A stretch of 64,000 nt of DNA from an uncultured Gammaproteobacteria bacterium. GTDB taxonomy: Bacteria > Patescibacteriota > Microgenomatia > Daviesbacterales > UBA10151. Positions within the stretch are counted from its first letter, which is position 1. The number at the start of each line of letters is the position of its first letter. Below are positions 14,047 to 52,540 of the stretch, one piece after another. The notes under the pieces were generated by a model, which ran no database searches, was not told the origin of the DNA, and saw only the letters and a list, made by a program, of their open reading frames with translations. The stretch lies in assembly GCA_964394855.1 (NCBI GenBank), contig CAYMZD010000002.1, forward strand, positions 60,575 through 124,574, given 5' to 3'. A program made the translations under genes and the position numbers.

Positions 14047-14053
14047 GGGCCAA

Positions 14054-16195: not shown

Positions 16196-16225
16196 TTTCT
16201 GGATAGTAACAAAAGGGTTGGAAAA

Positions 16226-16912: not shown

Positions 16913-16918
16913 TTATTG

Positions 16919-18739: not shown

Positions 18740-18795
18740 ATCAACTATTTTAACATATAGACAATTTTTAAAAAGGTTGTTAGTATTTTTAAGTC

Positions 18796-20028: not shown

Positions 20029-20032
20029 TAAG

Positions 20033-22873: not shown

Positions 22874-22876
22874 AAT

Positions 22877-24063: not shown

Positions 24064-24075
24064 GAATACATTGTA

Positions 24076-24333
24076 CTACTTTTTAGAGGTTTTTCTAACT
24101 ACTTTTGGTAGTCTTGATAATGTTGATTTTAATCGCGCGGACTTATTTTTATGAATTAGATGAGTTTTGGCCGCTTTATCAAGTGCAGAAAAAACTGCCT
24201 TGAGATTAAGGTCATTTTTTTCTATCCTGGCTTTTTTAATCAAGGATTTTAAGTTACTTTCCTGTTGCTTGTGGCGCCGGGTTCTAGTGCGGTCTTTTCT
24301 TAATTTTTTAATGGCTGATTTGATGAGTGGCAT
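24076..24333 (-). CDS. rpsT: 30S ribosomal protein S20
   Basis: MPLIKSAIKKLRKDRTRTRRHK ... basic helical 85-aa protein matching S20. Confidence 0.85.
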   Translation of the reverse strand: MPLIKSAIKKLRKDRTRTRRHKQQESNLKSLIKKARIEKNDLNLKAVFSALDKAAKTHLIHKNKSARLKSTLSRLPKVVRKTSKK

Positions 24334-26006: not shown

Positions 26007-26593
26007 CCTTCAAAAAAATACTTAGCTCTCTGGGCTTTTTTAAAAATATGGGTAAATAAGGAGTGTGCGAAGTGGCTTGATTTAGTATAGTAACTTTTAT
26101 TTTCTTTAATCATCTTGCCAGTTATTTTATATTCACTCCAGGTTTTTCCTTTAGCTAAATAAACTTGAATCATGGGGTGAATTTTATCTAAGGCTTGAAC
26201 AAAGACAGCCTCTGAACTTTTTCTCTCCTCATATTCCTGCCACAGCTGATGCATCTCTTGCTCTAAATTTTTAGGCAGCATTTTAAATAGCTTTTTAGCA
26301 GCCATATCCTCTCTTTTCTTCTTATCTTTCCTAGCCTCTTCATCATATGCAAAAGTATCACCTGCATAAATTTCGACTAAATCATGCATCAAGGCCATTT
26401 TGATAACTTTTATTAAATTAATCTTCTTGTCAAATTGCTCTGCAAATAGCCATACCATCATCGCTAGATGCCAGGAGTGCTGTGCATCATCCTCCATTAA
26501 GTCGCCTTTTTGCATATGAATAATTCTGGTGACAAATTTAAACTGATCAATTTCTTCTATAAACTTGAGGATTTTTTTAGCATCTGGGGACAT
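26003..26593 (-). CDS. HD-domain phosphohydrolase (YfbR-like 5'-deoxynucleotidase family)
   Basis: H...HD...D metal-binding pattern (SWHLAMMVW, ALMHDLVEIYAGD). Confidence 0.6.
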   Translation of the reverse strand: MSPDAKKILKFIEEIDQFKFVTRIIHMQKGDLMEDDAQHSWHLAMMVWLFAEQFDKKINLIKVIKMALMHDLVEIYAGDTFAYDEEARKDKKKREDMAAKKLFKMLPKNLEQEMHQLWQEYEERKSSEAVFVQALDKIHPMIQVYLAKGKTWSEYKITGKMIKENKSYYTKSSHFAHSLFTHIFKKAQRAKYFFEG

Positions 26594-26649
26594 GCAAGAA
26601 TAATAACCTAAGATTGTGAGTAGGTCAACATTAGGTTACAATACCTTAC

Positions 26650-28401: not shown

Positions 28402-28446
28402 CCCATTCGATTGCACTCAGGGTCAATACTGAATGGAATTGAAGTA

Positions 28447-28474
28447 TTGACAAAAGTAATGTATAGTGTATAAT
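28447..28474 (+). promoter_or_regulatory. consensus sigma70 promoter TTGACA-16-TATAAT driving the TA cassette; predicted leaderless transcript
   Basis: ttgaca(28447-52), 16-nt spacer, tataat(28469-74). The antitoxin ATG at 28481 lies 7 nt after the -10. Confidence 0.5.
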
Positions 28475-28480
28475 GTATAT

Positions 28481-28735
28481 ATGATCAGGAAACAATTTTA
28501 TGTGACTCCGGAAATAGACAGAGCGCTACTTATTTTAGCTAGAAAAGAAGGTAAATCTGTAGCAGAAGTTCATAGAGAAATTCTTAAAAAGGGACTCCGA
28601 ACCAAAAGTATTAAAGCTAATCCCGCAAGCGTTTTATTTAAAATAACCGGAATCGCCAAAAAAGGACCCAAGGATTTATCCGCTAATCTATTTGACTATC
28701 TTTATGGAGATAAATCCCCTAATTATGGCAAGTAA
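28481..28735 (+). CDS. ribbon-helix-helix antitoxin (CopG/VapB-like)
   Basis: MIRKQFYVTPEIDRALLILARKEGKSVAEVHREILKKGL is an RHH fold signature. The track start at 28466 lies inside the -10, so the start is moved to 28481. 11-nt overlap with the downstream PIN gene. Confidence 0.55.
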   Translation: MIRKQFYVTPEIDRALLILARKEGKSVAEVHREILKKGLRTKSIKANPASVLFKITGIAKKGPKDLSANLFDYLYGDKSPNYGK

Positions 28736-29144
28736 AAAATTACTAGTTGACGCGGATGCTTTCGTAGCCTTGGTAAATTCGATTGACTCAAACCATCAAA
28801 AAGCCAAATTATTGAGAGATCAAATTAGCGATCAAGAGTTTTCATTGATGACTTCAGATCCTGCCTTTGGAGAGGCGATTACCGTCATTAGTCAAGATAC
28901 TGGTTTGGAATCAGCTACTCTGTTTGCAGAAGAAACATTAGTCAGTCAAGTAGAGATAATTGAAGTAGATGCCAGTTTACGAAGAAAAGCCTTGGATATT
29001 TTTAAAAAACAAACCTCCAAAAATTCCCGTTTTACAGACTGTATTAATATGGCAATTATGGAGGAGAAAAAATTAAATACCATTTTTAGTTTTGATGTTC
29101 AATACAAAAAGAACAAATTTAAAAGATTTGGGATAGATAAATGA
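28725..29144 (+). CDS. PIN-domain toxin (VapC-like ribonuclease)
   Basis: Acidic quartet consistent with the PIN fold (LLVDADAFV ... E ... TDCINMAIMEE ... FSFD); start at MASKK overlapping the antitoxin stop. Confidence 0.55.
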   Translation: MASKKLLVDADAFVALVNSIDSNHQKAKLLRDQISDQEFSLMTSDPAFGEAITVISQDTGLESATLFAEETLVSQVEIIEVDASLRRKALDIFKKQTSKNSRFTDCINMAIMEEKKLNTIFSFDVQYKKNKFKRFGIDK

Positions 29145-29201
29145 AAATGGTGGGTCTGGTGGAAATCCCCCAAGAGGCATTTTTGAGTATTTTAAAAAGT
29201 T
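29143..29201 (+). repeat. direct repeat copy B (orphan duplicate of the lepA 3' end, in-frame relic MVGLVEIPQEAFLSILKS-stop)
   Basis: Same 59-bp unit; the 43-bp core is identical to 28357-28399; ends with a TAA stop at 29201-29203. Confidence 0.85.
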
Positions 29202-29632
29202 AATAATTGTTTATTGTATCCGAATAGGGGTCCATAAATTAGTTCTATTCTGGTAGGGGTTAATTTATACCATGATTCATCTTGATCGAGAACCTCACCT
29301 TTCTTTATAGGAGGAACTTTACCTCTTTTAATTCTATGTTTAATGGCTAGTTCTAAAATATCTCCTTCGATTTTTTTAGCCAGACCCTCGATTTGTAGTC
29401 CCATTTCTTTGCCTGGTTTTTCTTTGACTGTGATTGTTCCAGCTACTTGCGGGTGGAATAAAATTGCTTTTGAGTGGCGTCGACTAGTTTGCGAAATCCA
29501 ATAGATATTGAAGTTGTCATCGTAGATATAAATTACATCAGCTACCCAAACCCCGCCTCCATCAACAGTCCCCAAACTCATTAAATAACCTTTATCTAAA
29601 ATTTCTTTAATTAATTTTTTGATATTTTTCAC
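29192..29632 (-). CDS. pyridoxamine 5'-phosphate oxidase-like FMN-binding split-barrel protein
   Basis: ~145 aa with a PNPOx-like/general-stress-protein-26 pattern (YLMSLGTVDGGGVWVADVIYIY). Confidence 0.45.
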   Translation of the reverse strand: MKNIKKLIKEILDKGYLMSLGTVDGGGVWVADVIYIYDDNFNIYWISQTSRRHSKAILFHPQVAGTITVKEKPGKEMGLQIEGLAKKIEGDILELAIKHRIKRGKVPPIKKGEVLDQDESWYKLTPTRIELIYGPLFGYNKQLLTF

Positions 29633-29655
29633 TAAAGTGATTATATAATAACAAT

Positions 29656-30219
29656 ATGATATTTGCTCTTGAAGGATTGGATAGTTCAGGTAAAACTACT
29701 TGTGGAAAATTATTAGCAGAGCAAACTAACGGAACATATTTTTATGCTGCCAATGGCAGATTAATATCTAAATTAAGAAAATATTTTGATAACAGATCAA
29801 CTTGGCTACGGTTTCTTTTTTATTTGATTATTAATTTCGGTAATTACTTCGTTATAACTAAAAAGAGAAGAAATGGAAATCTATTTTTAGATAGAACTGT
29901 TTTTTCAACCGTTGCTTATCATAAAGCTTATGGACTTTCTGAAATTTGGTTTCGGTTAATTCCCTTGTTTCTACTTAATCAGATCGATTTTATGGTGTAT
30001 TTTACAGTATCAGAGAAAGAAAGATCAAAAAGAATAGTTAAGAAGATTAAAACAAAAGATACCATGTCTAAAAGTGATGAAAAATCTTTAGTTTTAGGAA
30101 AAGAAATAGATGCAGAATATAGAAAATTAACTAATAAATATACATCTTTGATAATTGAAACAGATAATAAAACTCCTCAACAAATAATTGACGAATTGAA
30201 ATTAAAATTATCTCTATAA
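29656..30219 (+). CDS. tmk: thymidylate kinase family protein
   Basis: P-loop EGLDSSGKTT (Tmk EGxDGxGKTT) and the DR motif (LDRTVFSTVAYHKAYG) of dTMP kinases; the LID region is divergent. Confidence 0.5.
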   Translation: MIFALEGLDSSGKTTCGKLLAEQTNGTYFYAANGRLISKLRKYFDNRSTWLRFLFYLIINFGNYFVITKKRRNGNLFLDRTVFSTVAYHKAYGLSEIWFRLIPLFLLNQIDFMVYFTVSEKERSKRIVKKIKTKDTMSKSDEKSLVLGKEIDAEYRKLTNKYTSLIIETDNKTPQQIIDELKLKLSL

Positions 30220-30296
30220 AATAAGAGAACTTGATTTTAATCACATTTTATGAGTATGCTGGAGGTAGATTTAAAAATAAAGGGGGTGATAAAGAA

Positions 30297-30500
30297 ATGA
30301 AGATGTTGCATATGGCAGCCTACACTGTGCTTTGGGTGGGAGGTTTGAACTGGGGTCTGGTGGGACTTTTGAATTTAAACTTGGTGGAATCACTTTTGGG
30401 AGTTGATTTGGCCAAATGGGTTTATATTTTAGTAGGTTTGGCCACGGTTTACATCATTGTGGGACACCGCAATGACTGCAAGGTTTGCAGTGGAGCATAA
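30297..30500 (+). CDS. DUF378-family small membrane protein
   Basis: MKMLHMAAYTVLWVGGLNWGLVGLLNLNLV ... two TM helices typical of DUF378; start moved to the internal Met. Confidence 0.45.
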   Translation: MKMLHMAAYTVLWVGGLNWGLVGLLNLNLVESLLGVDLAKWVYILVGLATVYIIVGHRNDCKVCSGA

Positions 30501-30525
30501 ACAAAGGGAAGATTAGGTATTATTT

Positions 30526-30556
30526 AATCCCCTGCCATCCGGTGGGGGATTTTTTG
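30526..30556. terminator. bidirectional rho-independent terminator between convergent genes
   Basis: aatcccc-tgccatccggtg-ggggatt followed by tttttt. 7-bp GC-rich stem with a T-run on the plus strand (and an A-run on the minus). Confidence 0.6.
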
Positions 30557-30560
30557 GAAT

Positions 30561-31691
30561 TTAGCGGATTTGCAAAGATTCACCTCTAAATTCAATCCCT
30601 AATGGTTCAATAACCACTTTTCTTGGCCCTTTTTCCACATATCCTGCATCCAGAGCAGGAATGGACATTTTCTTTCCGATCGTGATAATTTTGTCTACGG
30701 ATTTTGGCGGGACAAATAACGCGAAACCTACTCCCATATTGTATGAACCATACATGTCAAAATCCGAAGAACTTGAATATTGTTGAATCAATTTAAAAAT
30801 CGGTTGGGGTTTGGGCATTTTTTTAATAACATAAGTAAAATTTTTACTGGCTCGCATTAGTTTTCTAAATCCGTGGCCTGTGATATGAACTGCATAATGG
30901 ATTTCAGTTTGGTGAACTGCCTCTTCTACAAATTTAGAATAGATTGTGGATGGGGTTATTAACGCTTCTCCAAAAGTTGTACCGTCAGATAATTTTGTTT
31001 GATACCCTTTAGGTAGTCTTTTTAGCAGTTCTTTTCTAAGCAAAGTAATGCCATTAGTATGTACACCGCTGCTTTCCAATAAAATAATATGATCTCTCGC
31101 AACTAGCTTATCTTCTGTTAAGGCTTTTTCTGATGGAATAATTAAACCAGTCGCCGATCCTGACAATAGCGATCTTCCGGTGCTAATAATATCCCTTAAA
31201 GTAGCTGACTCGCCCCCACCCCAGGAAGCACCGGCCAGATTACAAGCAGAGACAGTTCCCTTAAAAAGTGCCGTTGCCCTTTTAAAATTGGTAAACCATT
31301 CTGTGGGGTAAGCTGCCAAGTGCAGCATAAAAGAAAGTGGAGCGGCGCCGGTGGTGGATAGATCGTTAAAAATTGAGGCTGCATTATCTATTGCCACTGA
31401 TTCATAAAAAGATCCCCCATAAATTTTTTCCAACTCATCAGCGCCTACATTTTTAGTTCCCAGTCCTTCTTCAACATGAGCTATTCTAAAGTCAATCACC
31501 TTGCTGGATTTTATTTGAATTTGATAAGCAGATTCTCCTCTGCTGTGAGATATTTCAGAAATAGCAATATTGTATCTAGCAAATCTTTTTAAATTTTTAG
31601 CAGTTTTTCTGGCATAATTTAAAGCCAGTATTTTAAAAGGGTCTTTTATTTTGTAATTGTCACCAGAAGCTTCGTATAGAAGTTTTATCAT
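30561..31691 (-). CDS. AIR-synthase-related (PurM superfamily) protein of unknown role
   Basis: PurM N-domain-like GLGTKNVGAD and C-domain-like SGVHTNGITLL motifs. Start placed at ATG 31691; an alternative GTG at 31727 would run into the hrcA promoter/CIRCE. Confidence 0.45.
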   Translation of the reverse strand: MIKLLYEASGDNYKIKDPFKILALNYARKTAKNLKRFARYNIAISEISHSRGESAYQIQIKSSKVIDFRIAHVEEGLGTKNVGADELEKIYGGSFYESVAIDNAASIFNDLSTTGAAPLSFMLHLAAYPTEWFTNFKRATALFKGTVSACNLAGASWGGGESATLRDIISTGRSLLSGSATGLIIPSEKALTEDKLVARDHIILLESSGVHTNGITLLRKELLKRLPKGYQTKLSDGTTFGEALITPSTIYSKFVEEAVHQTEIHYAVHITGHGFRKLMRASKNFTYVIKKMPKPQPIFKLIQQYSSSSDFDMYGSYNMGVGFALFVPPKSVDKIITIGKKMSIPALDAGYVEKGPRKVVIEPLGIEFRGESLQIR

Positions 31692-31710
31692 ATTAGTATC
31701 ATTATACCCC

Positions 31711-31747
31711 TTGACAAAAGTTAGCACTCATGATAAATTACTGCTAA
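31711..31747 (+). promoter_or_regulatory. hrcA promoter (TTGACA-17-TAAATT) overlapping a CIRCE-like inverted repeat (HrcA operator)
   Basis: ttgaca(31711-16); TTAGCACTC-atgataaat-TACTGCTAA at 31721-31747. The left arm is perfect CIRCE; the right arm matches 6/9. Confidence 0.6.
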
Positions 31748-36910: not shown

Positions 36911-38365
36911 ATGGCAGAAATGACACGTCCGCCCATAGTCACTATACTCGGCCATGTTGACCATGGCAAAACTACCCTACTTGATTTTATCAGGAAATCC
37001 TCTGTAGCAGCAAAGGAACATGGTGGGATTACCCAGCATATTGGTGCATATCAAGTTGAACATGATGGTAAATTAATTACTTTTATTGATACTCCTGGAC
37101 ATGCTGCTTTTGAAAAAATGCGCTCTAGGGGCGCTAAAGTGGCAGACATTGCAGTTTTGGTGGTGGCAGTAGATGATGGGGTGATGCCACAAACTATTGA
37201 GGCTATCAAACACATTCAGGAGGCAAAAGTCCCCATGATTGTAGCTATTAATAAAACAGATTTACCTGGCATAAATGTAAAAGTACAGCTGGAGAAGATT
37301 AAAAAGCAACTTTCAGACCAAAAAGTTTTAGCAGAAGAATATGGAGGAGATGTGCCCATAATTTCACTTTCTGCCAAAACCGGTGAAGGTGTGGATAAAC
37401 TCTTGGAGATGATCAGTCTGTTAGCAGAGCTGCATGAGCTTAAAAGTGAATCTGATATAGCGCCATCAGGAGTAGTGATTGAGGCTAATTTAGATAAATC
37501 CAGAGGCCCGCTGGCCACACTTTTAATAAGAAATGGCACTTTAAAAAAAGGTATACAGATTATAGTGGGTGGAGTAAAAGGTAAGATCAAGGGTATGTTT
37601 GATTTCAATGGGAAGAGTATAGAAGCGGCTGGCCCTTCTACTCCGGTGGAAGTGCTTGGACTTGAGAGTGTTCCAGGGGTGGGTGCTACTTTGGGACAGG
37701 AAATGGAACAAGAATCAAGAATGAAGCAGCAAGAGCTAAGCTTACTTGAAAAATTAAAGGCAGGAGAAAGTAAAACTCTAAAAGTGATTATTAAAGCTGA
37801 TAAGCAAGGATCGCTAGAGGCTATTGTCCATTCTTTGGACAAAATTAATAAAAATGCCAAACTGATAGAAGTTATTTCAAGCGGGACAGGAGATATATTG
37901 GAGGGTGATGTGAAGCTGGCTTCGTCTGTGGGGGCGATCATTATTGGATTTAATGTCAAGGTGGTACCAACCGCTGTTAAAATGGCTGAAACAGAGCATG
38001 TTTTAATAAGAACCTACAATATTATATATGAGCTGCTCTCGGAGCTAGAAGATGTTTTGGAGGGGATGTTTAAGGTGGGGCAAGTAGAGGAGATTTTAGG
38101 CAAAGCTAATATTATTGCTGAATTCCCCTTTGGAAAGTCAGAGCGAGTTCTCGGGTGTCGGGTCATTGAAGGAGTAATTAGTAAAGGATCAAAAATAAGA
38201 GTGAAAAGGGATGAAGAGGTAGTGGGCGAGAGTAAACTAAAGTCCTTAAGGGTTGTGAAAGATGAAGTGCAAAAGGCAGAAAAGGGTCAAGATTGCGGCA
38301 TGCTTTTTGATCCTGCCATAGATTTCCAAATAGGGGACACAGTAGAATCCTTCAGGGTAATATGA
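36911..38365 (+). CDS. infB: translation initiation factor IF-2 (short form lacking the N-terminal extension)
   Basis: G-domain [28 protein letters not shown]; C-terminal beta-barrels. Confidence 0.9.
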
Positions 38366-39393
38366 TAGAGAACTTTGATCTTTTCAGACCGCTACCATTT
38401 CTCGACACCACCCGCCAGTTGGCCAGACAAGCAACAGGAAGAGTGGGGCTTGAAGCCATGGTTTGGTATCCAGACCCCCCAACCTATCAATTTGTTAACA
38501 TGTTGGAGGAGGCTGCTAAAAGACAAGTTCAAGCACAGGCAAAAATAGATTACTATTCTTTGATGACCACTGATTTTCACAATAATCTTTTCCCCATGCC
38601 GCAACTAAGAAGAGAGAGAGGAAGAAAGACTCAAGAGATGGTTCAGAGGATGAGGAAGGCTGGAGTGTCAGTAGATCTTTTAAACCCCCCCAGTCTTTTG
38701 CAAAGATTAATACCCCAGTTGGGCAGAAACCATCGCAAAATAGGTTTAATTGATGGTGTTGGTTTTGTAATGGGTTTTAATCTTTCCAAATACAATTTTG
38801 ACTGTGAAGATATAGCAGTAGCTTTAACTGAACCACAAGCAGTAAAAAGATTAGCTGAAGTTTTTGAGGAAGCAGGTCTGGTGGAAAGAGATGATCGAGA
38901 GATTTACTGCGGCGGGAACACTTATTTATTAGTTGATTATGGTCGGGTTGGTCAATCTCTAATTTTAGATCGGGCAGTGGAGATGGTGAGGGGGGCTAGG
39001 GACTACGTGAGGTGGGTTAATCTTTTTCCTCCCAATGGTCGATTGGAAGTTGAGATGGCAAGAGCATCCAAAAGAGGGGTTGATGTGGAGGGAATTATTA
39101 CCAGGCCAGTTTGGGTTAGAAAAGCCAGGTGGGATATCAGGTTAATGCAGCTTGTGAATAGTCTCCAGTCTTATTCTCTTGGTAATCAGTTAGCTTTGGG
39201 ATATCACAATCCTGATATTCATGCCAAAGTTCTAGTAACTGATAATCAAACATTGGTAGGTTCACATAATTTAGTTTGGGAAGGTGTCTGGGCCGGCACA
39301 GAGGAGTTAGACATTTTTTCTACTAATCCTATTCTGGAGAGAAAATTAAATAGATATTATGCCCAACTTAAACTAGGTAGTCGGGCAGCTTGA
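38362..39393 (+). CDS. phospholipase-D superfamily protein with two HKD motifs (cardiolipin-synthase-like, no TM segment)
   Basis: HRKIGLIDGVGFVMGFN and HAKVLVTDNQTLVGSHN (HxKxxxxD...G(S)xN). ATGA overlap with the infB stop. Confidence 0.6.
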   Translation: MIENFDLFRPLPFLDTTRQLARQATGRVGLEAMVWYPDPPTYQFVNMLEEAAKRQVQAQAKIDYYSLMTTDFHNNLFPMPQLRRERGRKTQEMVQRMRKAGVSVDLLNPPSLLQRLIPQLGRNHRKIGLIDGVGFVMGFNLSKYNFDCEDIAVALTEPQAVKRLAEVFEEAGLVERDDREIYCGGNTYLLVDYGRVGQSLILDRAVEMVRGARDYVRWVNLFPPNGRLEVEMARASKRGVDVEGIITRPVWVRKARWDIRLMQLVNSLQSYSLGNQLALGYHNPDIHAKVLVTDNQTLVGSHNLVWEGVWAGTEELDIFSTNPILERKLNRYYAQLKLGSRAA

Positions 39394-39437: not shown

Positions 39438-40430
39438 ATGAAATACGATAGTCAACTAATAGAGTTGAAAAACCTGCTTCCGTCTGCCAAAAGCATTTTA
39501 ATTGCCTTACCTAGCAACTGCGATATGGACCGCTTCGCCGCCGGGCTGGCCCTTTTTTTATCATTCAATGCCCAAGGTAAGGAAGTTTCAGTAGTTTGTG
39601 ATGACACAATTCATGTGGCCCAGTCTCATCTTTTTGGGGTGAACCATGTCCAAAAAAATATACCCCAAACTCAAGGCGGTAATTTTGTTATCAGCTTGGA
39701 GGGAGTAGCTGTCCCCAACTCATCCTCCCCCCAAGGAGGACAAGCTCCAGCCTTGGAAAAAATGGATTATGTGGTAGAAGGCAATAATTTAAATTTAGTT
39801 TTCTATATTTTACCAGGTCAAACTTTTCAGCCTTCAAGGATAGTGCCCCATTATCAAGGTAGCGGTTTTAACCTAATTTTTACAATTGGTGCTGCCAATT
39901 TAAACCATTTGGGAAATATATATTTACAAAATCAGGGAGCTTTTTCTGGTGTTCATGTAGTTAATATTGATATTCAAGCGGCCAACACCTCCTTTGGCCA
40001 AACTAATGTAGTTGATAGCGCAGCTTCTTCTGTGGCTGAAATAATGACAGATGTGGTGGGAGCACTGGGGTTGCCTTTTGATGCAGATATTGCTTCAAAT
40101 TTATTGGCGGGAATTTTTGAGGCTACCTCCAATTTGACTTCACAAAATGTTAGTGCAGATACGCATCTCGCGGTGGCCAATTGTTTAAGAATTGGCGGCA
40201 GAAAACCGGAAGTCTTACAAAATGCAATACCCGCTAGCGGAGGTTTTGATTTAAGCAGTTTGATCAGCCCCAAACCCACAGTGGAAGCTTTTACTGCTCC
40301 GCCTATATCCAGTGAGCCACAACCTTCTCCAGAAGAAAGACCATCAGGGGAAGGATTGGCTGCTGAAAGTATCGAACCAGAACCAGGTTGGTTAACCCCT
40401 AAAGTTTTCAAGGGCGGTTCTGTGGGTTAA
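39438..40430 (+). CDS. degenerate NrnA-like DHH-family protein (DHH motif replaced, no DHHA1 domain) with Pro/Ser/Glu-rich tail
   Basis: Aligns from memory to NrnA around motif I (ILIALPSNCDMDRFAAGLAL ~ ILHRHVRPDPDAYGS) and motif III (VVNIDIQAANTSFGQTNVVDSAASSVAEIM ~ KIDHHPNEDPYGDLLWVDTSASSVSEMI). DHH is changed to DIQ, motif II and IV Asp residues are substituted, and the GGGH/DHHA1 domain is missing. Confidence 0.4.
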   Translation: MKYDSQLIELKNLLPSAKSILIALPSNCDMDRFAAGLALFLSFNAQGKEVSVVCDDTIHVAQSHLFGVNHVQKNIPQTQGGNFVISLEGVAVPNSSSPQGGQAPALEKMDYVVEGNNLNLVFYILPGQTFQPSRIVPHYQGSGFNLIFTIGAANLNHLGNIYLQNQGAFSGVHVVNIDIQAANTSFGQTNVVDSAASSVAEIMTDVVGALGLPFDADIASNLLAGIFEATSNLTSQNVSADTHLAVANCLRIGGRKPEVLQNAIPASGGFDLSSLISPKPTVEAFTAPPISSEPQPSPEERPSGEGLAAESIEPEPGWLTPKVFKGGSVG

Positions 40431-40538: not shown

Positions 40539-40808
40539 ATGCCACTTGATGTAAAGAAAAAACAAAAGATTATTGAAGAGTTTGCTACCAAAAAGGGTGA
40601 TACAGGTTCTCCAGAGGTTCAAGTAGCACTTTTAACTGAACAGATTAAAAACTTGGCAGCTCACCTAAAAGAGCACCCGCATGACGTTCACTCCAGACGT
40701 GGCCTTTTATCTATGGTCAATAAAAGAAGAAGGCTGTTGCAGTATTTATTAAAAAAAGATGAAGAACGTTACAAGACAACGATTGACAAGCTTGGTTTAA
40801 GTAAGTAG
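40539..40808 (+). CDS. rpsO: 30S ribosomal protein S15
   Basis: [57 protein letters not shown] matches S15. The track's TTG-start extension (40467) is probably 5' leader. Confidence 0.85.
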
Positions 40809-40905: not shown

Positions 40906-43209
40906 ATGTCGAATATCATTACTAAAGAAATTGACCTAAATGGTCGAACGCTCAAGTTGGAAACAGGTAAGCTTGCTTTGCAGGCTAATTCCTCTGTGGT
41001 AGCCTCTTGGGGGGAAACAGTAGTTTTGGTGACAGTTTCCACCCAACCTTCACCAGAGGCCATAGCTTACTTTCCCTTATCAGTGGAGTTTGTGGAAAAA
41101 CATTATGCGGGGGGAAGAATTTCCTCTTCCAAATTTATCAAACGCGAGTCCAGGCCCTCTGATGAAGCTATTTTAACAGGTAGATTGATTGACCGCTCCA
41201 TCAGACCACTTTTTCCCAAGGATTTTCACCAAGAAGTTCAAGTGATAGTGACTGTGCTATCAATTGACCAAGCCAATGATCCTGACATTTTAGGCTTAAT
41301 TGGCACATCAGCAGCCCTGTCTATTTCTGCCATTCCTTGGCAGGGCCCATTAGGTGGTGCCAGAGTAGGTGTTAGTGATGGTACTTTGGTAGTTAATCCT
41401 ACCATTCAAGAGGCAGAACATCTTCAATTAGATGTCTTTGCGGCCTCAACTAAAGATAAAGTGGTGATGGTTGAAGCTGGAGGAAAGGAAGTGCCTGATG
41501 AGAAAGTTTTTGAAGCCATCAAGAAGGCTCACCAAGAATCTCAAGCCATAATTGGCCTCATAGAAGAGTTTACCAAAAAGGTTGGCAAAGAAAAACTAAC
41601 CTATTCTTCTTTGGCAGAAGAGGTGGAAGAGGCAATTTTAGAAGAAGTTAAAACCATAGCCAGAGAAAAAATTGAAGCAGCTTTATTTGATTCTGAACAC
41701 CCTTGGCATGAAGCAACAGGAGAAATAATTAAGACAGAACTAGCCATAAAATATGCAGAGGTTTTAACACCACAAATTGTATCTGGAGTATTTGATAAAG
41801 TGGCCAAGGAGATCATGAATGATGCTATTTTAAAGCAGGGTAAAAGAGTCGATGGAAGGGCTATGGATGAGATAAGGCCTATCTCCATTGAAGTAGGAGT
41901 ATTGCCTAGAACTCATGGTTCTGCCCTTTTCCAGCGTGGAGACACCCAAGTTTTATCAGTAGTCACTTTGGCGGCGCCATCTCTATCTCAAACCATTGAG
42001 GGTATGACAGGCGAAGAGCAGAAAAGATTTATGCACCATTACAATATGAGTATTAACCCATTTGCTACAGGTGAAGTAAAAAGAATTGGTGCTCCCAATA
42101 GAAGAGATATCGGCCATGGTGCACTGGTGGAAAAAGCCCTGAAAGAAGTGATGCCATCAGAAGAAAGTTTTCCTTATGCCATTAGAGTAGTTTCGGAAGT
42201 ATTGGCAGCCAATGCCTCCACTTCTATGGCCTCCCTTTGTGCCTCAACCTTGGCCCTGCTAAATGCGGGAGTTCCCATAAAAGAACCAGTGGCTGGAGTG
42301 GCCATGGGACTTTTATCAGACGAACAAAAGTTTCAAGTAATTACAGACATGCGGGCAGTGGAGGATTTTTATGGGGAGATGGATTTTAAGGTGGCTGGTA
42401 CCAAAGATGGTATTACTGTTATTCAAATGGATACAAAACTAGCAGGTTTATCCTTTGAAATTATTCAGCAGGCGCTAGATCAAGGTAAAAAGGCTAGATT
42501 GTTGATTTTAGATAAAATTAATCAGGCTGTGCCCAGTGTTGGTCAACTTTCTCCTTTGGCACCCAGAGTAGAAATTATTCATATAAAACCAGAAGATATT
42601 GGTAGCTTAATTGGGCCGGGGGGCAAAAATATCAACTCCATCATTGCCAAAACCAAAGCAGCAATTGATATCGAAGATGATGGAACAGTGATGGTTTCAT
42701 CAAGTAATGAGGAGTCTATCAATAAAGCCATGGCCGCCATAAAAGGGATGTTCCAAGAGATTAAGGTCGGCGAGGAGTTTATGGGTAAAGTGGTGCGTTT
42801 GGCTCCTTTTGGGGCTTTTGTGGAAATTTTACCTGGTAAAGACGGGTTAGTCCATATATCCCAAATGGCCCCAGGCCATGTGGAAAAAGCAGAAGATATA
42901 GTATCTGAAGGTCAGGAAGTCAAGGTCAGGGTGACTGAAGTTTCTCCAGATGGCAAGGTGGGTTTATCAATGCTTTTTGGAGACGATGTTAAACCAGAAA
43001 GAGAAGGCTCGCCTCGCTTCGCGGGCGGAGCAGGAAGACCTTCTGGTCGAAGCAGAGGTTTAGAGGGTGCTAGAGGTGGATTTGGAAACCGTCCTAGGTT
43101 TGGCGGAGAAAGACCAGGATTTGACAGAAGAAGGCCCGGTGGTTTTAGAGCTCGAGGACCACGTACAGGCGGGTTCAACCGCGGGGGTCGTGGCGGATTT
43201 AATAGATAA
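40906..43209 (+). CDS. pnp: polynucleotide phosphorylase (PNPase) with C-terminal Arg/Gly-rich (RGG-type) tail
   Basis: Two RNase-PH domains, KH (GPGGKNINSII) and S1 (GKVVRLAPFGAFVEILPGKDGLVHISQM), then ~60 aa of RGG/RGGF repeats. Confidence 0.9.
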   Translation: MSNIITKEIDLNGRTLKLETGKLALQANSSVVASWGETVVLVTVSTQPSPEAIAYFPLSVEFVEKHYAGGRISSSKFIKRESRPSDEAILTGRLIDRSIRPLFPKDFHQEVQVIVTVLSIDQANDPDILGLIGTSAALSISAIPWQGPLGGARVGVSDGTLVVNPTIQEAEHLQLDVFAASTKDKVVMVEAGGKEVPDEKVFEAIKKAHQESQAIIGLIEEFTKKVGKEKLTYSSLAEEVEEAILEEVKTIAREKIEAALFDSEHPWHEATGEIIKTELAIKYAEVLTPQIVSGVFDKVAKEIMNDAILKQGKRVDGRAMDEIRPISIEVGVLPRTHGSALFQRGDTQVLSVVTLAAPSLSQTIEGMTGEEQKRFMHHYNMSINPFATGEVKRIGAPNRRDIGHGALVEKALKEVMPSEESFPYAIRVVSEVLAANASTSMASLCASTLALLNAGVPIKEPVAGVAMGLLSDEQKFQVITDMRAVEDFYGEMDFKVAGTKDGITVIQMDTKLAGLSFEIIQQALDQGKKARLLILDKINQAVPSVGQLSPLAPRVEIIHIKPEDIGSLIGPGGKNINSIIAKTKAAIDIEDDGTVMVSSSNEESINKAMAAIKGMFQEIKVGEEFMGKVVRLAPFGAFVEILPGKDGLVHISQMAPGHVEKAEDIVSEGQEVKVRVTEVSPDGKVGLSMLFGDDVKPEREGSPRFAGGAGRPSGRSRGLEGARGGFGNRPRFGGERPGFDRRRPGGFRARGPRTGGFNRGGRGGFNR

Positions 43210-43230: not shown

Positions 43231-44253
43231 ATGGATAATCCTGTCCAAAATACAGATGAGTTAGTACAAAAAATTACTCAAGCCAATCTCCCTAAAGAAG
43301 TTGCAGAAAGATTACTGAATTTATTGAAGTTTCCAGGTCAAGGTGTAGAGCTAGAAAAGTTAATTGAATATATTGATTTTGTTTTAAGCTTACCTTTTAA
43401 TAAATCCAGTCAGGATATTCTAGATTTAGGAAGGGCCAAGCAAATTTTAGATAAAAACCATTACGGTTTAAAAACAGTCAAAGATAGAATTTTAGAGTAT
43501 TTGGCTGTTTTAATCTTAAATGCCAAATCAGGCAAACAAGAGAGTTTACGGGCACCAATTCTGCTATTTGTGGGGCTGGTGGGAACTGGTAAAACTTCAA
43601 TTGCTTATTCGATTAGTGAAGTCCTGGGTAGGCCTATTTTTAGAATTCCTTTTGGAGGAGTGGGAGACCCGCTGCAACTTCGTGGACAATCCCGAGTTAA
43701 ACCTGATGCAGAGCCGGGTCAAATTATGAAAGCTTTAAAAGTTTTAAAGGTAAACAATCCAATTATTTTGCTTGATGAGATAGATAGAGTGGCAGAAGAG
43801 GGGAGGGTCGATATGATGGGAGTTTTGGTTGAACTGTTAGATCCCCAACAAAATCATGCTTTTTTAGATCATTATTTAGATTTTCCATTTGATTTATCCA
43901 GGATTTTGTTTATCGCCACAGCCAACAATACCGGCAATATCGCCACAGCAGTGATGGACAGGCTTGAACCTATTCAAATGCCTGCTTATAGTGACGGCGA
44001 AAAATTAATCATTGGCAAAAACTATCTTTTACCCCAGGCCGTGGAAGAATCTGGGCTAACAGCCGGTCAACTGGTGATAGATGAGATGGTTTGGCCACAG
44101 ATATTAAGACCATTAGGTTTTGATGCAGGCATCAGGTCCCTGCAACGAACCCTACAAGGTTTAACTCGCAAAATAGCTAGGCAGGCAGTAGAAGGTAATC
44201 TTGGACCATTTACCATTACAACACAAAATATTGGAGAATATTTAATAGACTAA
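43231..44253 (+). CDS. stand-alone Lon-type AAA+ ATPase module (no Lon N-domain, no protease domain)
   Basis: Near-colinear match to the Lon AAA+ core (LDKNHYGLKTVKDRILEYLAV, Walker A GLVGTGKTS, FGGVGDPLQLRG, Walker B ILLDEID, LDPQQNHAFLDHYL, ATANN ... MDRLE). The ORF ends with TAATG coupling to rnj; no S-K protease dyad region follows. Confidence 0.7.
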   Translation: MDNPVQNTDELVQKITQANLPKEVAERLLNLLKFPGQGVELEKLIEYIDFVLSLPFNKSSQDILDLGRAKQILDKNHYGLKTVKDRILEYLAVLILNAKSGKQESLRAPILLFVGLVGTGKTSIAYSISEVLGRPIFRIPFGGVGDPLQLRGQSRVKPDAEPGQIMKALKVLKVNNPIILLDEIDRVAEEGRVDMMGVLVELLDPQQNHAFLDHYLDFPFDLSRILFIATANNTGNIATAVMDRLEPIQMPAYSDGEKLIIGKNYLLPQAVEESGLTAGQLVIDEMVWPQILRPLGFDAGIRSLQRTLQGLTRKIARQAVEGNLGPFTITTQNIGEYLID

Positions 44254-49078: not shown

Positions 49079-50380
49079 ATGAATTCTGATAACTTAAGAG
49101 AGAAATTTTTAAAATTTTTTGCCAGATGCGGACATGTCATCATCCCCTCTGCCTCATTAATACCTTCGGCAGAAGAACAATTAGCTGGTAAAGAAAAGGT
49201 TTTATTTACCAGCGCTGGTATGCAGCCTTTAATTCCCTACCTTTTAGGTAAACCACACCCTCAAGGTAAAAGATTAGCTGATGTACAAAAATGTTTAAGA
49301 ACCGATGATATAGAAGAAGTAGGAGATGCTGTGCATAATACATTTTTTGAAATGTTAGGGAATTGGTCGCTCGGTGCTTATTGGAAGGATGAAGCTATAA
49401 GACTTTCTTTTGAATTTTTGACTAAAGAGTTAGAAATTTCCATAGAAAAGTTAGCAGTCAGTGTGTTTGCAGGGGATGAAAATACTCCCAAAGATGAGGA
49501 GTCGGCAAGAGTATGGGAAAGTCTGGGAATTCCCAAAGATAGGATTTTTTATTTTGGTAAAGAATATAATTGGTGGCCAACTGGTGAAAAATCAGGCCCA
49601 TGTGGTCCAGATACGGAAATGTTTTATTGGACAGGGGAAGGTGAACCAGCAGGCAAGCCAAATGAAAATTCTTTATGGGTGGAAATATGGAATGATGTTT
49701 TTATGCAGTTCAATCGGCAAGATGACGGGATGCTGGAGGAGCTAAAACAAAAAAACGTTGATACGGGGATGGGACTGGAAAGAACTTTAGCGGTATTAAA
49801 TGGTAAAAAAAACAATTACCAAACAGATTTATTTGAACCAATTATGCAGATGATCGAAAAGGTGACAGGCAAAGTATATGGACAAGACGATTGGGATACT
49901 GTCCGATTCAGAATCATTGCTGATCATGTTAAAGGAGCAACCTTTTTAATTGGGGATGGTGTCAGGCCTTCGAATAAAGATAGAGGTTATATTTTACGTC
50001 GTCTAGTTCGCCGTGCGGCCATGCAACTGCATTTATTAAAAAAAATTACCAATGAAAAAGACTTTATTTCTATTAGCGACGCTGTTATTGAGATCTATGG
50101 AGGATTTTATTTTTTAGATTCAGAGCATCAAAGAAAAATCGTGGCGGAGGAAATTGGAGCAGAGATTTCTAAATTTATTAAAACAATTGAAAAAGGTTTA
50201 CAGGTATATAAAAAAACAGGACAAGTTGTTTCTGGTCAAGAAGCTTTCTTTCTTTTCCAAAGCTTTGGTTTTCCCCTAGAGTTGACAATGGATTTAGCCA
50301 AAGAAGATGGTAAGATGATAGATAAAGAGGGATTTGAGAAAGAATTTAAAAAGCATCAAGCTATTTCCCGTGGGGAGTAG
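49079..50380 (+). CDS. alaS: alanyl-tRNA synthetase, catalytic + tRNA-recognition core only (433 aa; no editing or C-Ala domains)
   Basis: Class II AlaRS N-terminus (FLKFFARCGHVIIPSASLIP, LFTSAGMQP, QKCLRTDDIEEVGDAVHNTFFEMLGNWSLGAYWK, WWPTGEKSGPCGPDTE). The stop at 50380 is followed by an unrelated gene. Confidence 0.8.
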   Translation: MNSDNLREKFLKFFARCGHVIIPSASLIPSAEEQLAGKEKVLFTSAGMQPLIPYLLGKPHPQGKRLADVQKCLRTDDIEEVGDAVHNTFFEMLGNWSLGAYWKDEAIRLSFEFLTKELEISIEKLAVSVFAGDENTPKDEESARVWESLGIPKDRIFYFGKEYNWWPTGEKSGPCGPDTEMFYWTGEGEPAGKPNENSLWVEIWNDVFMQFNRQDDGMLEELKQKNVDTGMGLERTLAVLNGKKNNYQTDLFEPIMQMIEKVTGKVYGQDDWDTVRFRIIADHVKGATFLIGDGVRPSNKDRGYILRRLVRRAAMQLHLLKKITNEKDFISISDAVIEIYGGFYFLDSEHQRKIVAEEIGAEISKFIKTIEKGLQVYKKTGQVVSGQEAFFLFQSFGFPLELTMDLAKEDGKMIDKEGFEKEFKKHQAISRGE

Positions 50381-50404: not shown

Positions 50405-52540
50405 ATGAGCTTGTTGGAAAAACTCACTAATTTCTTACCATTTACCAAAACTAAGCAGCAGGCAAAACACTTCTTTGCTTTAAATATTGGCCCGGAAAAA
50501 GTTAAAGCAGCTCTTTGGTCTATTGAGGATAAAAATTTACAAGTTGTTAACCCTGTTTTTACAAAATACTCTTCCGCGGATGAACTTTTACAAGTAGCTG
50601 ACCATTTACTTGATCAGACATTGGGAGATCTAAATGTGGAGCCAGAAAAAATTCTTTTTGGTGTTCCAGATTCTTGGCTATTGGATGATGAGTTAAAAGA
50701 ACCATATTTGAAACTCCTTCGTAATATAGTTAAAGAGCTAAGTTTAAAACCCATGGCTTATGTAGCCACCTCACATGCGCTGGCTCATTTTCTAGAGAGT
50801 CTTGAGGGAGCACCCACTACAGCCATTTTAGTGGGTATTGAGGAGAGTTTCTTGAGCATCACAGTAGTCAGGGCTGGTAAAATTGATGGGACTAAACTGA
50901 TAAAGCGGGGTGATAATCTTGGGGAAGAGATTGAAAAAGCGCTACTTTCTTTTACCGAAGTTGAGGTTTTACCTTCAAAAATATTGTTATATGGCTTGGA
51001 GGGGTTAGATAAACACAAAAGCAATTTACTGGCTTTTCCCTGGATGTCAAAACTATCTTTCCTGCATTTTCCCAAGATCGAGACCTTGGAAGAAGATGTA
51101 GAGTTAACAGCAACAGCTTTAGCTGGAGCAGTGGAACTTCAAGGTGATGTTAAATATTCCCCCAGTTCATCTATGGTCACCATCACCCCCCAAAAAAAGT
51201 TATCGGTAATGGAGGAAGAGGAAGCTGAAGAAAGGAAGCCACCAACAAAGACACAAAATGAAACTGGTTTTGTGACAGGGGATATTACCAAAGTACCAGA
51301 AAAGGAAGAACCAGAGGAAGAGAAGCCCCCCATGATCGTGGCTGAAGATGAGCTGTTAGAGCAGCCCCATCATGCAAGATTTAAGCTACCATTTTTAAAG
51401 CTGTCTTATTTGAGGGGTAAAAATAAGTTACTTATTTTGCCGGCAGCAATTTTAATTTTGACTATTTTCTATCTATTATTCTCTCAAGCCAAAGTGACTG
51501 TTTTTGTGGAACCACGAGTTTTAGAAAGAGACTCTCAAGTTACAGCTGATCCCAATGTAAAGACGGTTGATGAAGCAAATAAGATTATTCCAGGACAATT
51601 CACAGAAGTGCAGGTTGCTGGATCAGACAAGTTGGCAGCCACTGGAAGAAAAGAGGTGGGTGATCCAGCCAAAGGCACAGTGGTTATTTATAATAAGACA
51701 GATTCTGCCAAGACGTTTTCTAGTGGTACCGCTTTAACTGGTTCAGGTGGACTCAAGTTTACTCTAAATTCTACTGTTAATGTTGCTTCCCAATCGGCCA
51801 TTGAAGGGGGTATCTCTTTTGGGAAAGCCACTACCGGTGTGACTGCTGTTTTGATAGGAGCAGATGGAAATATCTCGTCTGGGACAGAATTGTCTTTAGC
51901 TAGTTTTTCTTCCTCACAATATTCAGCTAAAGCCGAAGGTAATTTTTCTGGAGGGAACTCCAAAGAAGTAACTGTGGTGACAGATAGTGATCAGAAAAAA
52001 CTTTTAGCATCTTTGGCAGCAGCGCTTCGCAAAAAAGCCCAAGAGGAATTGCAAAAAAGCTTGGAAGGAAAAAAGATTCTAGAAGAAGCTCTGTCTGAAG
52101 ATATTATTAAAAAATCATACTCCAAGAATATCAATGATCAAGCATCGGAATTTTCTTTAAGCTTGACTATTAAATATAAAGGTATTGCCTATTCTGAACC
52201 TGATTTAAAGCTGATCGTTTCCAAATTAATAGAAACTAATGTCCCGGCTGATTTTGAGTTGAACTTAGCTGAAACAGAGACGCAAGCAGATGTTTCCAAG
52301 CTGGAAAAAGATAAATTGATCTTTCTGGCACGGTTTAAAGCTAAATTAATGCCCAAATTGGATATAGCTAAAATAAAATCACAACTTAGGGGGAAAACAC
52401 CTCAAGAGGTAGCCGCTATTTTAAAAAGTTATGAAAATGTTTTAGGTTCTGACATAAAACTTAATCCTTCCTTGCCTGCCCCAATTGCCAGGTTACCGCT
52501 ATTGGATAGAAATATCCACATCGAGGTGAGTTTGAAGTAA
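50405..52540 (+). CDS. bitopic membrane protein: degenerate actin-like (FtsA/PilM/GspL-type) cytoplasmic domain, acidic linker, TM helix, ~330-aa extracellular domain
   Basis: N-terminal pattern FALNIGPEKVKAALWS ... AILVGIEESFLSITVVRAGKI ... ILLYGLEG resembles ASKHA phosphate/adenosine motifs with substitutions. Glu-rich linker, then TM (LLILPAAILILTIFYLLF), then a Ser/Thr/Gly-rich beta-type region. Confidence 0.35.
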   Translation: MSLLEKLTNFLPFTKTKQQAKHFFALNIGPEKVKAALWSIEDKNLQVVNPVFTKYSSADELLQVADHLLDQTLGDLNVEPEKILFGVPDSWLLDDELKEPYLKLLRNIVKELSLKPMAYVATSHALAHFLESLEGAPTTAILVGIEESFLSITVVRAGKIDGTKLIKRGDNLGEEIEKALLSFTEVEVLPSKILLYGLEGLDKHKSNLLAFPWMSKLSFLHFPKIETLEEDVELTATALAGAVELQGDVKYSPSSSMVTITPQKKLSVMEEEEAEERKPPTKTQNETGFVTGDITKVPEKEEPEEEKPPMIVAEDELLEQPHHARFKLPFLKLSYLRGKNKLLILPAAILILTIFYLLFSQAKVTVFVEPRVLERDSQVTADPNVKTVDEANKIIPGQFTEVQVAGSDKLAATGRKEVGDPAKGTVVIYNKTDSAKTFSSGTALTGSGGLKFTLNSTVNVASQSAIEGGISFGKATTGVTAVLIGADGNISSGTELSLASFSSSQYSAKAEGNFSGGNSKEVTVVTDSDQKKLLASLAAALRKKAQEELQKSLEGKKILEEALSEDIIKKSYSKNINDQASEFSLSLTIKYKGIAYSEPDLKLIVSKLIETNVPADFELNLAETETQADVSKLEKDKLIFLARFKAKLMPKLDIAKIKSQLRGKTPQEVAAILKSYENVLGSDIKLNPSLPAPIARLPLLDRNIHIEVSLK

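Follow-up and report, generated by a model that had tools for sequence, protein, structure and literature searches.

The closest described relatives of the protein reported here are the NrnA-type DHH proteins of the infB-linked clade, represented by MSMEG_2630 of M. smegmatis, Rv2837c (CnpB) of M. tuberculosis, TM1595 of T. maritima, and a RecJ-like protein of D. radiodurans. In mycobacteria, infB, rbfA, and nrnA are co-transcribed, with rbfA and then nrnA following infB, and the single exchange D134A eliminates both activities of MSMEG_2630 (PMC4081065). The position directly after infB is normally that of rbfA. The Bacillus-type NrnA enzymes (B. subtilis YtqI, S. aureus Pde2), which are more distant from our protein than the mycobacterial clade, are encoded in a dnaE/accA/pfkA/pyk neighborhood (PMC4081065) and represent active two-domain enzymes with R-x-R-x-R and GGGH motifs, in which substrate binding is the task of the DHHA1 domain (PMC5593865). 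Seven residues make up the active site of NrnA (H20, D24, D26, D80, H103, H104, and D156), which harbors two Mn2+ sites: M1 is liganded by H103, D26, D80, and D156, and M2 by D24 and H20 (PMC5593865).

The gene described here is located in a 64-kb window (the whole stretch of DNA analyzed), and its product shares with the infB-linked NrnA clade the DHH-domain topology, the non-catalytic pattern N-x-x-F-G-x-x-N-x-x-D...S around motif III, and a gene position downstream of infB in the same operon (for the clade, PMC4081065). Unlike the members of that clade, the family to which it belongs exhibits replaced active-site residues (five of seven in this ORF), no DHHA1 domain or GGGH motif, a beta-rich insert of ~61 aa, an acidic linker followed by a conserved C-terminal peptide, and no rbfA after infB. 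The parts of the locus are compiled in Table 1.

Table 1. Features of the gene for the DHH-like protein and its neighbors, with positions counted from the first nucleotide of the window.
Feature	Position	Strand	Basis
Whole gene, DHH-like protein, ATG start, 330 aa	39438..40430 (stop codon included)	+	ORF list
DHH-like fold, N-terminal part, aa 1-54, motif I remnant P25...D29-M-D31	39438..39599	+	Alignment to 4ls9 residues 33-74
Family-specific beta-rich insertion separating motifs I and II, aa ~55-140	39600..39857	+	4ls9 alignment, pLDDT
DHH-like fold, C-terminal part, aa 141-256; carries G151, D178-I179-Q180, and A229	39858..40205	+	NrnA-structure HMM alignments, family column counts
Codons of D178-I179-Q180, site of the DHH triad	39969..39977	+	Alignment of IDHHASN and IDIQAAN
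Acidic Pro/Ser/Glu-rich disordered linker, aa 257-313, in the place of DHHA1	40206..40376	+	pLDDT 61-70, no secondary structure
Conserved C-terminal peptide PEPGWLTPKVFKGGSVG, aa 314-330	40377..40427	+	Alignment of 128 sequences, motif table
infB, short IF2, 484 aa, conserved upstream partner gene	36911..38365	+	Pfam and NCBIfam IF-2
PLD-like gene between infB and the DHH-like gene, context only	38362..39393	+	PLDc_2/PLDc matches
rpsO (S15), start codon ATG at 40539, 89 aa, conserved downstream gene	40539..40808	+	ORF, sequence; Ribosomal_S15 in related loci
pnp (PNPase, Arg/Gly-rich C-terminal tail), conserved operon neighbor	40906..43209	+	Translation; RNase_PH/KH/S1 in orthologous loci

Relationship to NrnA-type DHH proteins

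The gene product is 100% identical to HY386_01035 of NCBI, a hypothetical protein of Candidatus Daviesbacteria, and a protein search matched 509 homologues. Its best matches among the PDB sequences, as obtained with phmmer, are 4ls9 (MSMEG_2630; E=1.4e-7) and Rv2837c (E=8e-6), while a PDB search with the family profile reached E=3.5e-8 and yielded only DHH/DHHA1 enzymes (13 of 13 matches). The entries 4ls9, 9wbu, 5jju, and 5cet head the list of sequence matches for the ORF and the family profile, and the nearest solved relatives by sequence belong to the infB-linked NrnA clade (4ls9, Rv2837c). B. subtilis NrnA (5j21/5ipp) was matched by the family profile over the region of motifs III-IV (E=0.003), and a Foldseek comparison shows that the predicted model and Bacillus-type NrnA have the DHH fold in common (E about 1e-10), the three-dimensional fold of the DHH domain being present in the ORF product. 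This model was calculated by AF2 from the 128-sequence alignment (pLDDT 88.7), and a run on 22 close homologues (46.8) was dropped. The homology to NrnA-type DHH proteins is therefore well above chance, confirming the identity proposed in the first-pass annotation. The check with the Pfam DHH and DHHA1 models suggested there gave a mixed outcome: the ORF itself stays below the gathering threshold of the DHH model (PF01368; 14 bits, E=0.062 vs 28.1), 63 of 128 relatives match this model at E<=0.01 (best value, 1.2e-13), and the DHHA1 model finds neither the ORF at E<=1 nor any of the 128 relatives scanned.

Replacement of the active-site residues

The HMM alignment to 4ls9 indicates that five of the seven NrnA residues are replaced, namely H20 by P25, D80 by G151, H103 by I179, H104 by Q180, and D156 by A229; the ORF thus does not contain the intact set of motifs I-IV (DxD, D, DHH, D). 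What had been read from the sequence earlier holds under residue-by-residue alignment: the motif II and IV aspartates are substituted, the DHH triad reads D178-I179-Q180, and motif I is kept as D29-M-D31, corresponding to D-A-D in 4ls9. Although the ORF still possesses equivalents of D24 and D26 (D29 and D31), only the latter is a family-wide feature, as D31 is kept in 136 of 140 relatives and position 29 is variable. Apart from D31, the structural D178 is the only residue conserved across the 140 relatives at the positions of the active-site motifs. According to the listed counts for these relatives, the first His of the DHH triad is exchanged for N, R, S, K, I, or T, and Ala prevails at the motif IV position, where Asp never occurs; the second His persists in 27 of them. 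In the proteins of Roizmanbacteria and some Woesebacteria, the Asp of motif II is still present, and so is the second His, as part of a D-R-H sequence. No sampled member of the family contains more than four of the seven scored motif positions, and the full catalytic set is found in none. As judged from these alignments, both Mn2+ sites have been lost, and we infer that the protein does not carry out catalysis. Its loss of catalytic residues is a trait of the whole family rather than a sign of gene decay.

The best-conserved residues of the folded domain (D31, N176-I-D178, N183, N190, D193, N221, T230, and N232) are located at the former active-site motifs, which could mean residual ligand binding or altered chemistry.

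Inserted module and C-terminal tail

An insertion after motif I had been recognized previously and described as a low-complexity sequence of about 65 aa. It is present with a length of ~61 aa (ORF residues 53 to 136 correspond to 4ls9 residues 74 to 96), but is folded and conserved rather than of low complexity, as shown by several beta strands predicted with pLDDT values of 85-97 by AF2 and by many invariant residues in the family alignment. A low-complexity loop of about 10 residues within it (PNSSSPQGGQ, 93-102) is lineage-specific. A profile of the insert alone gave no significant match in the PDB; the best one, the HMA domain of MerP (E=0.022), was judged to be due to chance.

A C-terminal DHHA1 domain with a GGGH motif, as present in NrnA, is missing, and the single-chain AF2 model leaves residues 257-330 unstructured (pLDDT 61-70, without secondary structure). 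The Pro/Ser/Glu-rich tail noted earlier in place of DHHA1 and GGGH is thereby borne out, but the earlier description overlooked that this tail ends in a near-invariant peptide with the consensus P-x-P-[DG]-W-L-x-P-K-[IV]-[FY]-K-G-x4-stop. The peptide is the most conserved feature of the protein, with W318, P321, and K322 almost invariant in 128 sequences. In the alignment of the relatives, the last 14 residues are constant both in sequence and in their distance to the C-terminus: the proteins end exactly 14 residues past the Asp in 98 of 131 representatives, and the same applies to 95 of the 120 genome matches listed, most of the others ending after 15-16 residues. The preceding linker measures between 21 aa and at least 180 aa in the relatives and is rich in P, Q, and S, with a pI of about 4.4.

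Related loci were located with a degenerate nucleotide pattern that encodes the C-terminal peptide. Because all 120 DNA matches listed for this pattern fall into the DHH-like family, the peptide does not represent a motif common to several protein families. Nor can the conservation be put down to an element at the RNA or DNA level, an rpsO leader for instance, since the third codon positions of the peptide-encoding DNA vary freely. An invariant terminal peptide, a variable disordered linker, and a folded domain together constitute the layout of a tethered short linear motif, and we infer that the terminal peptide serves for docking. Tethered docking peptides are known from the C-terminal peptide of FtsZ, the C-terminal tip of SSB, and the micro-domains of RNase E. 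The family may be regarded as analogous to these in its three-part architecture with a peptide at a fixed distance from the C-terminus, although there is no sequence similarity and the peptide is specific to the family among the at least 120 matches listed. The folded domain of the relatives is acidic (median pI 4.95), and a general role in RNA binding is therefore unlikely. This affects the scaffolding or RNA-binding role considered in the first-pass annotation, of which the acidic domain disfavors the RNA-binding part, leaving a function in protein docking or as a scaffold as the favored one.

Occurrence and gene order

The family comprises at least 346 clusters at 50% identity (E<=1e-30), and its members show 30-65% identity across hundreds of clusters with the reading frame intact. 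Intact ORFs were recovered by the peptide pattern in at least 120 GTDB species genomes, and all named Microgenomates lineages in the sample (Levy-, Roizman-, Gottesman-, Shapiro-, Woese-, and Daviesbacteria) contain members of the family. The earlier observation that the gene has been retained between infB and rpsO extends far beyond this genome, as the order nusA-infB-[gene]-rpsO-pnp is found in essentially all of about 120 species-level genomes identified by pattern matching. The gene is located on the same strand downstream of infB within the nusA-infB cluster, as are the genes of the infB-linked NrnA clade, at a median distance of 17 nt in 94 loci and with many overlaps. The number of clusters, the intact ORFs, the stable gene order, and the short distance to infB speak for purifying selection on a protein that is probably not an enzyme. 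On the other side, the gap to rpsO has a median of 101 nt, exceeds 300 nt in 23 of 87 loci, and often contains other genes; nearly all loci continue downstream with rpsO-pnp-(Lon-like AAA)-rnj, the Lon-like ATPase of the window being encoded at 43231..44253. In scans for promoters and terminators in the vicinity of the gene, no sites rose above the shuffled expectation, and no operon boundaries were drawn for this reason.

Instead of rbfA, either no gene or unrelated genes are present between infB and the DHH-like gene; the PLD-like gene is found there in this genome only, and the related loci lack it or carry another gene in its place. Neither rbfA nor truB was detected by Pfam among the window ORFs scanned, all of them outside the minus-strand block 2253..31727, and a second DHH paralogue is missing from the 64-kb window as well as from the 120 loci examined, each up to 8 kb long. 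The placement of actinobacterial nrnA between rbfA and truB, which had been assumed at the outset, has to be corrected, the documented order being infB-rbfA-nrnA(-dinF). Microgenomatia are reported to contain only about half of the usual ribosome-biogenesis factors; a loss of rbfA, era, and der is reported for them as well as for WWE3 and Dojkabacteria (PMC12641178). The IF2 encoded in the window does not contain the N-terminal region, as judged from its Pfam and NCBIfam domain matches.

Discussion

Since the protein has lost its catalytic residues and the substrate-binding half, yet kept both its position at infB and the terminal peptide, it is most likely a non-enzymatic adaptor. We assign a probability of about 60% to its being a non-catalytic, NrnA-derived adaptor with a putative docking peptide. 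By sequence, it appears to descend from the infB-linked NrnA nanoRNase clade and to have kept the DHH fold while becoming catalytically inert; the earlier proposal of an NrnA-derived non-enzymatic protein without DHHA1 is in line with its nearest relatives and with the family-wide loss of residues. The acidic DHH-like module would then act as a non-enzymatic adaptor or scaffold, tethered by the flexible linker to a partner on which the terminal peptide docks, and the gene would be co-expressed with infB, often through translational coupling. The partner would most likely come from the translation-initiation/30S or the RNA-decay machinery encoded in the same gene string, with IF2, S15/30S, PNPase, the Lon-like ATPase, and RNase J as candidates.

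A more specific version of the adaptor idea, which we regard as tentative and with a modest chance of being right, would be that Microgenomatia turned the NrnA of the infB operon into a lineage-specific, non-enzymatic factor of late 30S maturation or translation initiation, which occupies the operon slot of RbfA, perhaps does its job, and is anchored on the 30S subunit or IF2 by the basic-aromatic C-terminal peptide. The linkage to infB is the tightest one in the locus, the mycobacterial slot after infB is filled by rbfA and then nrnA on one transcript (PMC4081065), and the reported loss of rbfA, era, and der (PMC12641178), the absence of rbfA and truB from the scanned ORFs, and the short IF2 all point in the same direction. 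However, this support is purely positional, the DHH-like fold is unrelated to the KH-like fold of RbfA, and the domain is acidic. Moreover, WWE3 and Dojkabacteria also lack rbfA, but neither label appears among the at least 120 motif-specific matches listed. If true, a pseudoenzyme would stand in place of a "universal" ribosome biogenesis factor in ultra-small bacteria. It appears unlikely that the protein instead joins an RNA-decay assembly as a subunit without catalytic function and docks on PNPase (or on RNase J or the Lon-like ATPase) by its Trp-containing peptide, which would preserve the ancestral tie of NrnA with exonucleases producing nanoRNA. RNase E offers a model, recruiting PNPase via a short C-terminal micro-domain that contains Trp (GWW) in Caulobacter, and the Arg/Gly-rich basic tail of PNPase could pair with the acidic linker. 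The genes of these candidates follow next in nearly all loci, but behind the larger and often interrupted gap before rpsO, which may even have a promoter-like site of its own, although such sites in the region are not above chance.

A remaining function as an enzyme or a sensor of small ligands, with a remodeled and largely metal-free Asp/Asn pocket, seems quite improbable. The conservation centered on the motif positions named above, the subgroup that still has the Asp of motif II and the second triad His, and the automatic label "nanoRNase/pAp phosphatase" of some members in IMG would fit such a function, but only one of four M1 ligands and at most one of two M2 ligands are left, the substrate-binding DHHA1 domain is gone, and N183, G187, N190, D193, and S198 are common to active NrnA and likely structural. 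A decaying, functionless pseudogene or an annotation artifact might be suspected from the lost catalytic residues, the sub-threshold Pfam score, and the entry as "hypothetical protein" in NCBI; it is as good as refuted by the intact reading frame across the many diverged clusters, the fixed gene order in about 120 species genomes, the confidently predicted fold, and a C-terminal peptide that stays invariant while synonymous sites change freely.

As a non-catalytic adaptor, the protein would represent a bacterial DHH-fold pseudoenzyme from the NrnA branch, whereas the known precedents, eukaryotic Cdc45 and the archaeal inactive RecJ/Cdc45 homologues, belong to the RecJ branch and to DNA replication. 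Those proteins have kept a DHHA1-like domain and have no tethered C-terminal peptide; the retained DHHA1-like domain that would go with a descent from the RecJ branch is not seen in our family. Its architecture is unusual in combining a folded insert with a disordered tether and a putative terminal docking peptide. The literature searched contained no description of a DHH pseudoenzyme or a nanoRNase in Patescibacteria, and the nanoRNase review does not mention CPR. In all of the Microgenomates genomes examined, the gene is a conserved and unannotated member of the nusA-infB-rpsO-pnp string, and this conserved place, together with the reported lack of RbfA (PMC12641178), makes it a candidate for questions of 30S maturation and RNA decay. 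The "nanoRNase/pAp phosphatase" labels of family members in IMG are probably wrong, which would affect metabolic reconstructions of nucleotide recycling in Microgenomates.

Homology, fold and catalytic residues

The host genome of the window belongs to Candidatus Daviesbacteria (Microgenomates, Candidate Phyla Radiation), and the DHH-like ORF is 100% identical to HY386_01035, an NCBI hypothetical protein. It has no match in NCBIfam, while a phmmer search of the PDB returned DHH/DHHA1 enzymes only, with NrnA from M. smegmatis (4ls9, E=1.4e-7) and Rv2837c from M. tuberculosis (E=8e-6) as best matches; a profile of 22 homologues improved the E value to 3.5e-8. In the Pfam comparison proposed by the first-pass annotation, DHH scored below threshold for the ORF (14 bits vs. 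a cut-off of 28.1) and was found at E<=0.01 in 63 of 128 relatives (best value 1.2e-13), and DHHA1, the substrate-binding domain of NrnA, in none of the 128. The AlphaFold2 model, calculated with 128 diverse relatives in the alignment, is confident (pLDDT 88.7), with values mostly >90 and a lowest block of 85 for residues 1-260. The homology to NrnA-type DHH proteins is real, and the protein has a DHH fold of NrnA ancestry. An antisense ORF of 145 aa inside the gene, opposite the conserved coding region, was judged spurious.

A residue-level alignment to 4ls9 bears out what the first-pass annotation had stated on the catalytic motifs, namely a retained DMD and substitutions in motifs II, III, and IV. 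In NrnA, metal 1 is bound by H103, D26, D80, and D156, metal 2 by D24 and H20, and the substrate by DHHA1 (Schmier et al., PMC5593865). The DHH-like ORF shows P25, D29, D31, G151, I179, Q180, and A229 at the active-site positions (H20, D24, D26, D80, H103, H104, and D156 in NrnA), which leaves metal 1 with one of its four ligands; the metal 2 ligand D29 is special to this ORF, because most relatives carry S, T, or N there. The DHHA1 domain is missing, and residues 257-330 are predicted by AlphaFold2 to be devoid of secondary structure. Both metal sites and DHHA1 are lost, and phosphoester hydrolysis has presumably been lost with them; in MSMEG_2630, exchange of the DHH aspartate alone (D134A) abolished both activities (PMC4081065). 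The label "nanoRNase/pAp phosphatase" given to some family members in IMG is contradicted by the motif analysis.

Residues 53-136 of the query face only residues 74-96 of 4ls9, indicating an insertion of about 61 residues. A low-complexity insertion of ~65 aa had been described before, of which the insertion stands and the low complexity does not: the segment is among the best-conserved stretches of the protein in the alignment of relatives and is predicted as a beta-rich subdomain (pLDDT 85-97). Only the loop PNSSSPQGGQ (93-102) is of low complexity, and it is restricted to a few Daviesbacteria. A profile of the insertion alone retrieved no significant solved relative.

Conservation in the family

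A 90%-clustered database contains 509 homologues, the best 120 of which share 54-65% identity, have 309-365 aa, and lack any Pfam annotation; when 1.84 billion representatives were searched exhaustively with a profile, 346 clusters reached E<=1e-30 and 2104 reached E<=1e-10. Among 140 representatives, the catalytic motifs are reduced to D31 (136/140) and the structural DHH aspartate (121/140). At motif II, 113 sequences have Gly and 17 have Asp; the first His of DHH is replaced by N, R, S, K, I, or T among the counts listed, and the second is kept in only 27; at motif IV, 96 sequences have Ala, and Asp is absent among the residues listed. A subgroup from Roizmanbacteria and some Woesebacteria still has H-x-H-P in motif I, Asp in motif II, and D-R-H, and seems to represent a transitional state of decay, while in other Woesebacteria even the motif III Asp is gone. 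Out of seven motif positions that were scored, sampled members keep four at most. The DHH-like ORF is a family member and not a relic, and the family is under strong purifying selection and apparently widespread across one CPR class.

The fold is followed by an acidic, Pro/Gln/Ser-rich linker of 21 to 180 residues (~300 in one member, P0165); the folded domain is likewise acidic (median pI 4.95). The chain ends with an almost invariant peptide, P-x-P-D-W-L-x-P-K-[IV]-[FY]-K-G-x-x-x-x-stop, which reads PEPGWLTPKVFKGGSVG in the DHH-like ORF (aa 314-330) and had been overlooked in the first reading. Its W, P, and K are conserved in 131, 130, and 125 of 131 sequences, respectively, and the chain stops exactly 14 residues past the peptide Asp in 98 of these 131. 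Scanning one genome per GTDB species with a degenerate DNA pattern gave at least 120 matches, and 120 of the 120 listed represent the C-terminus of a DHH-like family member. Every synonymous alternative is used for the Leu, Pro, and Gly codons, which argues for selection on the peptide and rules out an RNA or DNA element as cause of the tail conservation. In one related locus, L125, the gene (2861..3892) seems split, with the peptide on a separate 57-aa ORF, possibly because of a frameshift or an error in sequencing.

Gene order and hosts

The order (dnaK-dnaJ-)nusA-infB-X-rpsO-pnp(-Lon-like AAA-rnj-ftsK), with X as the DHH-like gene, is kept with almost no exceptions in five fetched loci (relatives down to ~30% identity) and at least 120 species genomes. 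The gap between infB and X has a median of 17 nt and is <=60 nt in 79 of 94 loci, with many overlaps of 1-11 nt, whereas X and rpsO lie a median of 101 nt apart, with other genes in between in about a quarter of the loci. Therefore, X is primarily a gene of the infB operon, and it is tightly coupled to infB. No second DHH paralogue is present in the 64-kb window or in ~1 Mb of related loci.

Features of the window discussed in the text
Feature	Position	Strand	Remarks
hrcA-grpE-dnaK-dnaJ		+	part of the surroundings
nusA	35857	+	
infB, short	36911..38365	+	IF2, 484 aa
PLD-like gene	38362..39393	+	between infB and DHH-like ORF; 4-nt overlap with infB stop
DHH-like ORF	39438..40430	+	
Antisense ORF	39974..40411	-	inside DHH-like gene
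rpsO	40539	+	
pnp	40906..43209	+	
Lon-like ATPase	43231..44253	+	340 aa; no protease domain
RNase J	44253	+	
ftsK	after RNase J	+	
alaS	49079..50380	+	433 aa
ORF after alaS	50405..52540	+	711 aa

The PLD-like gene (two PLDc-type matches, weak similarity to ClsB) is a local insertion, the same spot being empty or occupied by a different gene in related genomes. Named hosts of the family are Levy-, Roizman-, Gottesman-, Shapiro-, Woese-, Davies-, and Chisholmbacteria and "Microgenomates". Some matching contigs with the same operon bear labels of other taxa, and many the placeholder "uncultured Gammaproteobacteria"; TPA MAGs of the latter kind with the Microgenomates-type nusA-infB-DHH-like-rpsO-pnp string include L008, L010, L012, and about 45 further loci. 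All these contigs are probably mislabelled.

Origin and possible function

Two clades of nanoRNases are known, and the genes of the one containing MSMEG_2630 and Rv2837c are neighbours of infB, rbfA, and nusA and are transcribed together with the first two of these (Srivastav et al., 2014, PMC4081065). Since these two proteins are the closest solved relatives of the DHH-like ORF by sequence, derivation from the infB-linked NrnA is the simplest history. The documented order is infB-rbfA-nrnA(-dinF) (PMC4081065), and not rbfA-nrnA-truB as assumed earlier for Actinobacteria. According to a 2025 survey of ribosome biogenesis factors, rbfA, era, and der have been lost in Dojkabacteria, WWE3, and Microgenomatia (PMC12641178), so that in Microgenomatia the slot after infB is left to the NrnA-derived gene only. 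With metal sites and DHHA1 lost and the position conserved, the initial idea of an NrnA-derived pseudoenzyme kept in place was essentially right. Our sequence comparisons suggest that the ORF adds a new variant to the known DHH superfamily, a pseudoenzyme of the NrnA branch that carries a docking peptide on a tether; a literature search for the family or for a DHH pseudoenzyme of Patescibacteria found no description.

The DHH-like protein most likely acts as an adaptor or scaffold: its terminal peptide would bind a partner, with the acidic DHH-like module attached through a flexible tether. Such an architecture would resemble that of the C-terminal peptides of FtsZ and SSB and the micro-domains of RNase E. 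Candidate partners are found among the products of this gene string, with IF2 or the 30S subunit favoured by the infB coupling and the missing RbfA, and PNPase, RNase J, or the Lon-like ATPase favoured by the original function of NrnA, downstream of exonucleases. Alternatively, the protein may have residual or altered catalytic activity or sense a ligand, as the most conserved residues still line the former active-site motifs and one subgroup retains two more catalytic-type residues. The finding would gain in significance if the protein turned out to associate with the ribosome or IF2, given a lineage devoid of RbfA, Era, and Der.

Further observations on the window

The IF2 aligns with positions 84-579 of the IF-2 model and thus lacks the N-terminal region of most bacterial IF2s. 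The last ~75 codons of pnp encode an Arg/Gly-rich (RGG-like) C-terminal extension, and the PNPases of related loci differ in length (689 to 785 aa). The Lon-like ATPase matches positions 255-567 of the 795 in the Lon model (301 bits, below cut-off) as well as Pfam AAA and Lon_lid, and also lacks the N-domain; most of the related loci also have it between pnp and RNase J, so this gene string may encode a truncated enzyme besides the DHH-like protein. The ORF after alaS contains one hydrophobic stretch and has no Pfam or NCBIfam match. The alaS product consists of the catalytic core alone (model positions 1-435 of 595), without the editing (tRNA_SAD) and C-Ala domains, and its orthologue in the related locus L001 has 623 aa and contains tRNA_SAD.
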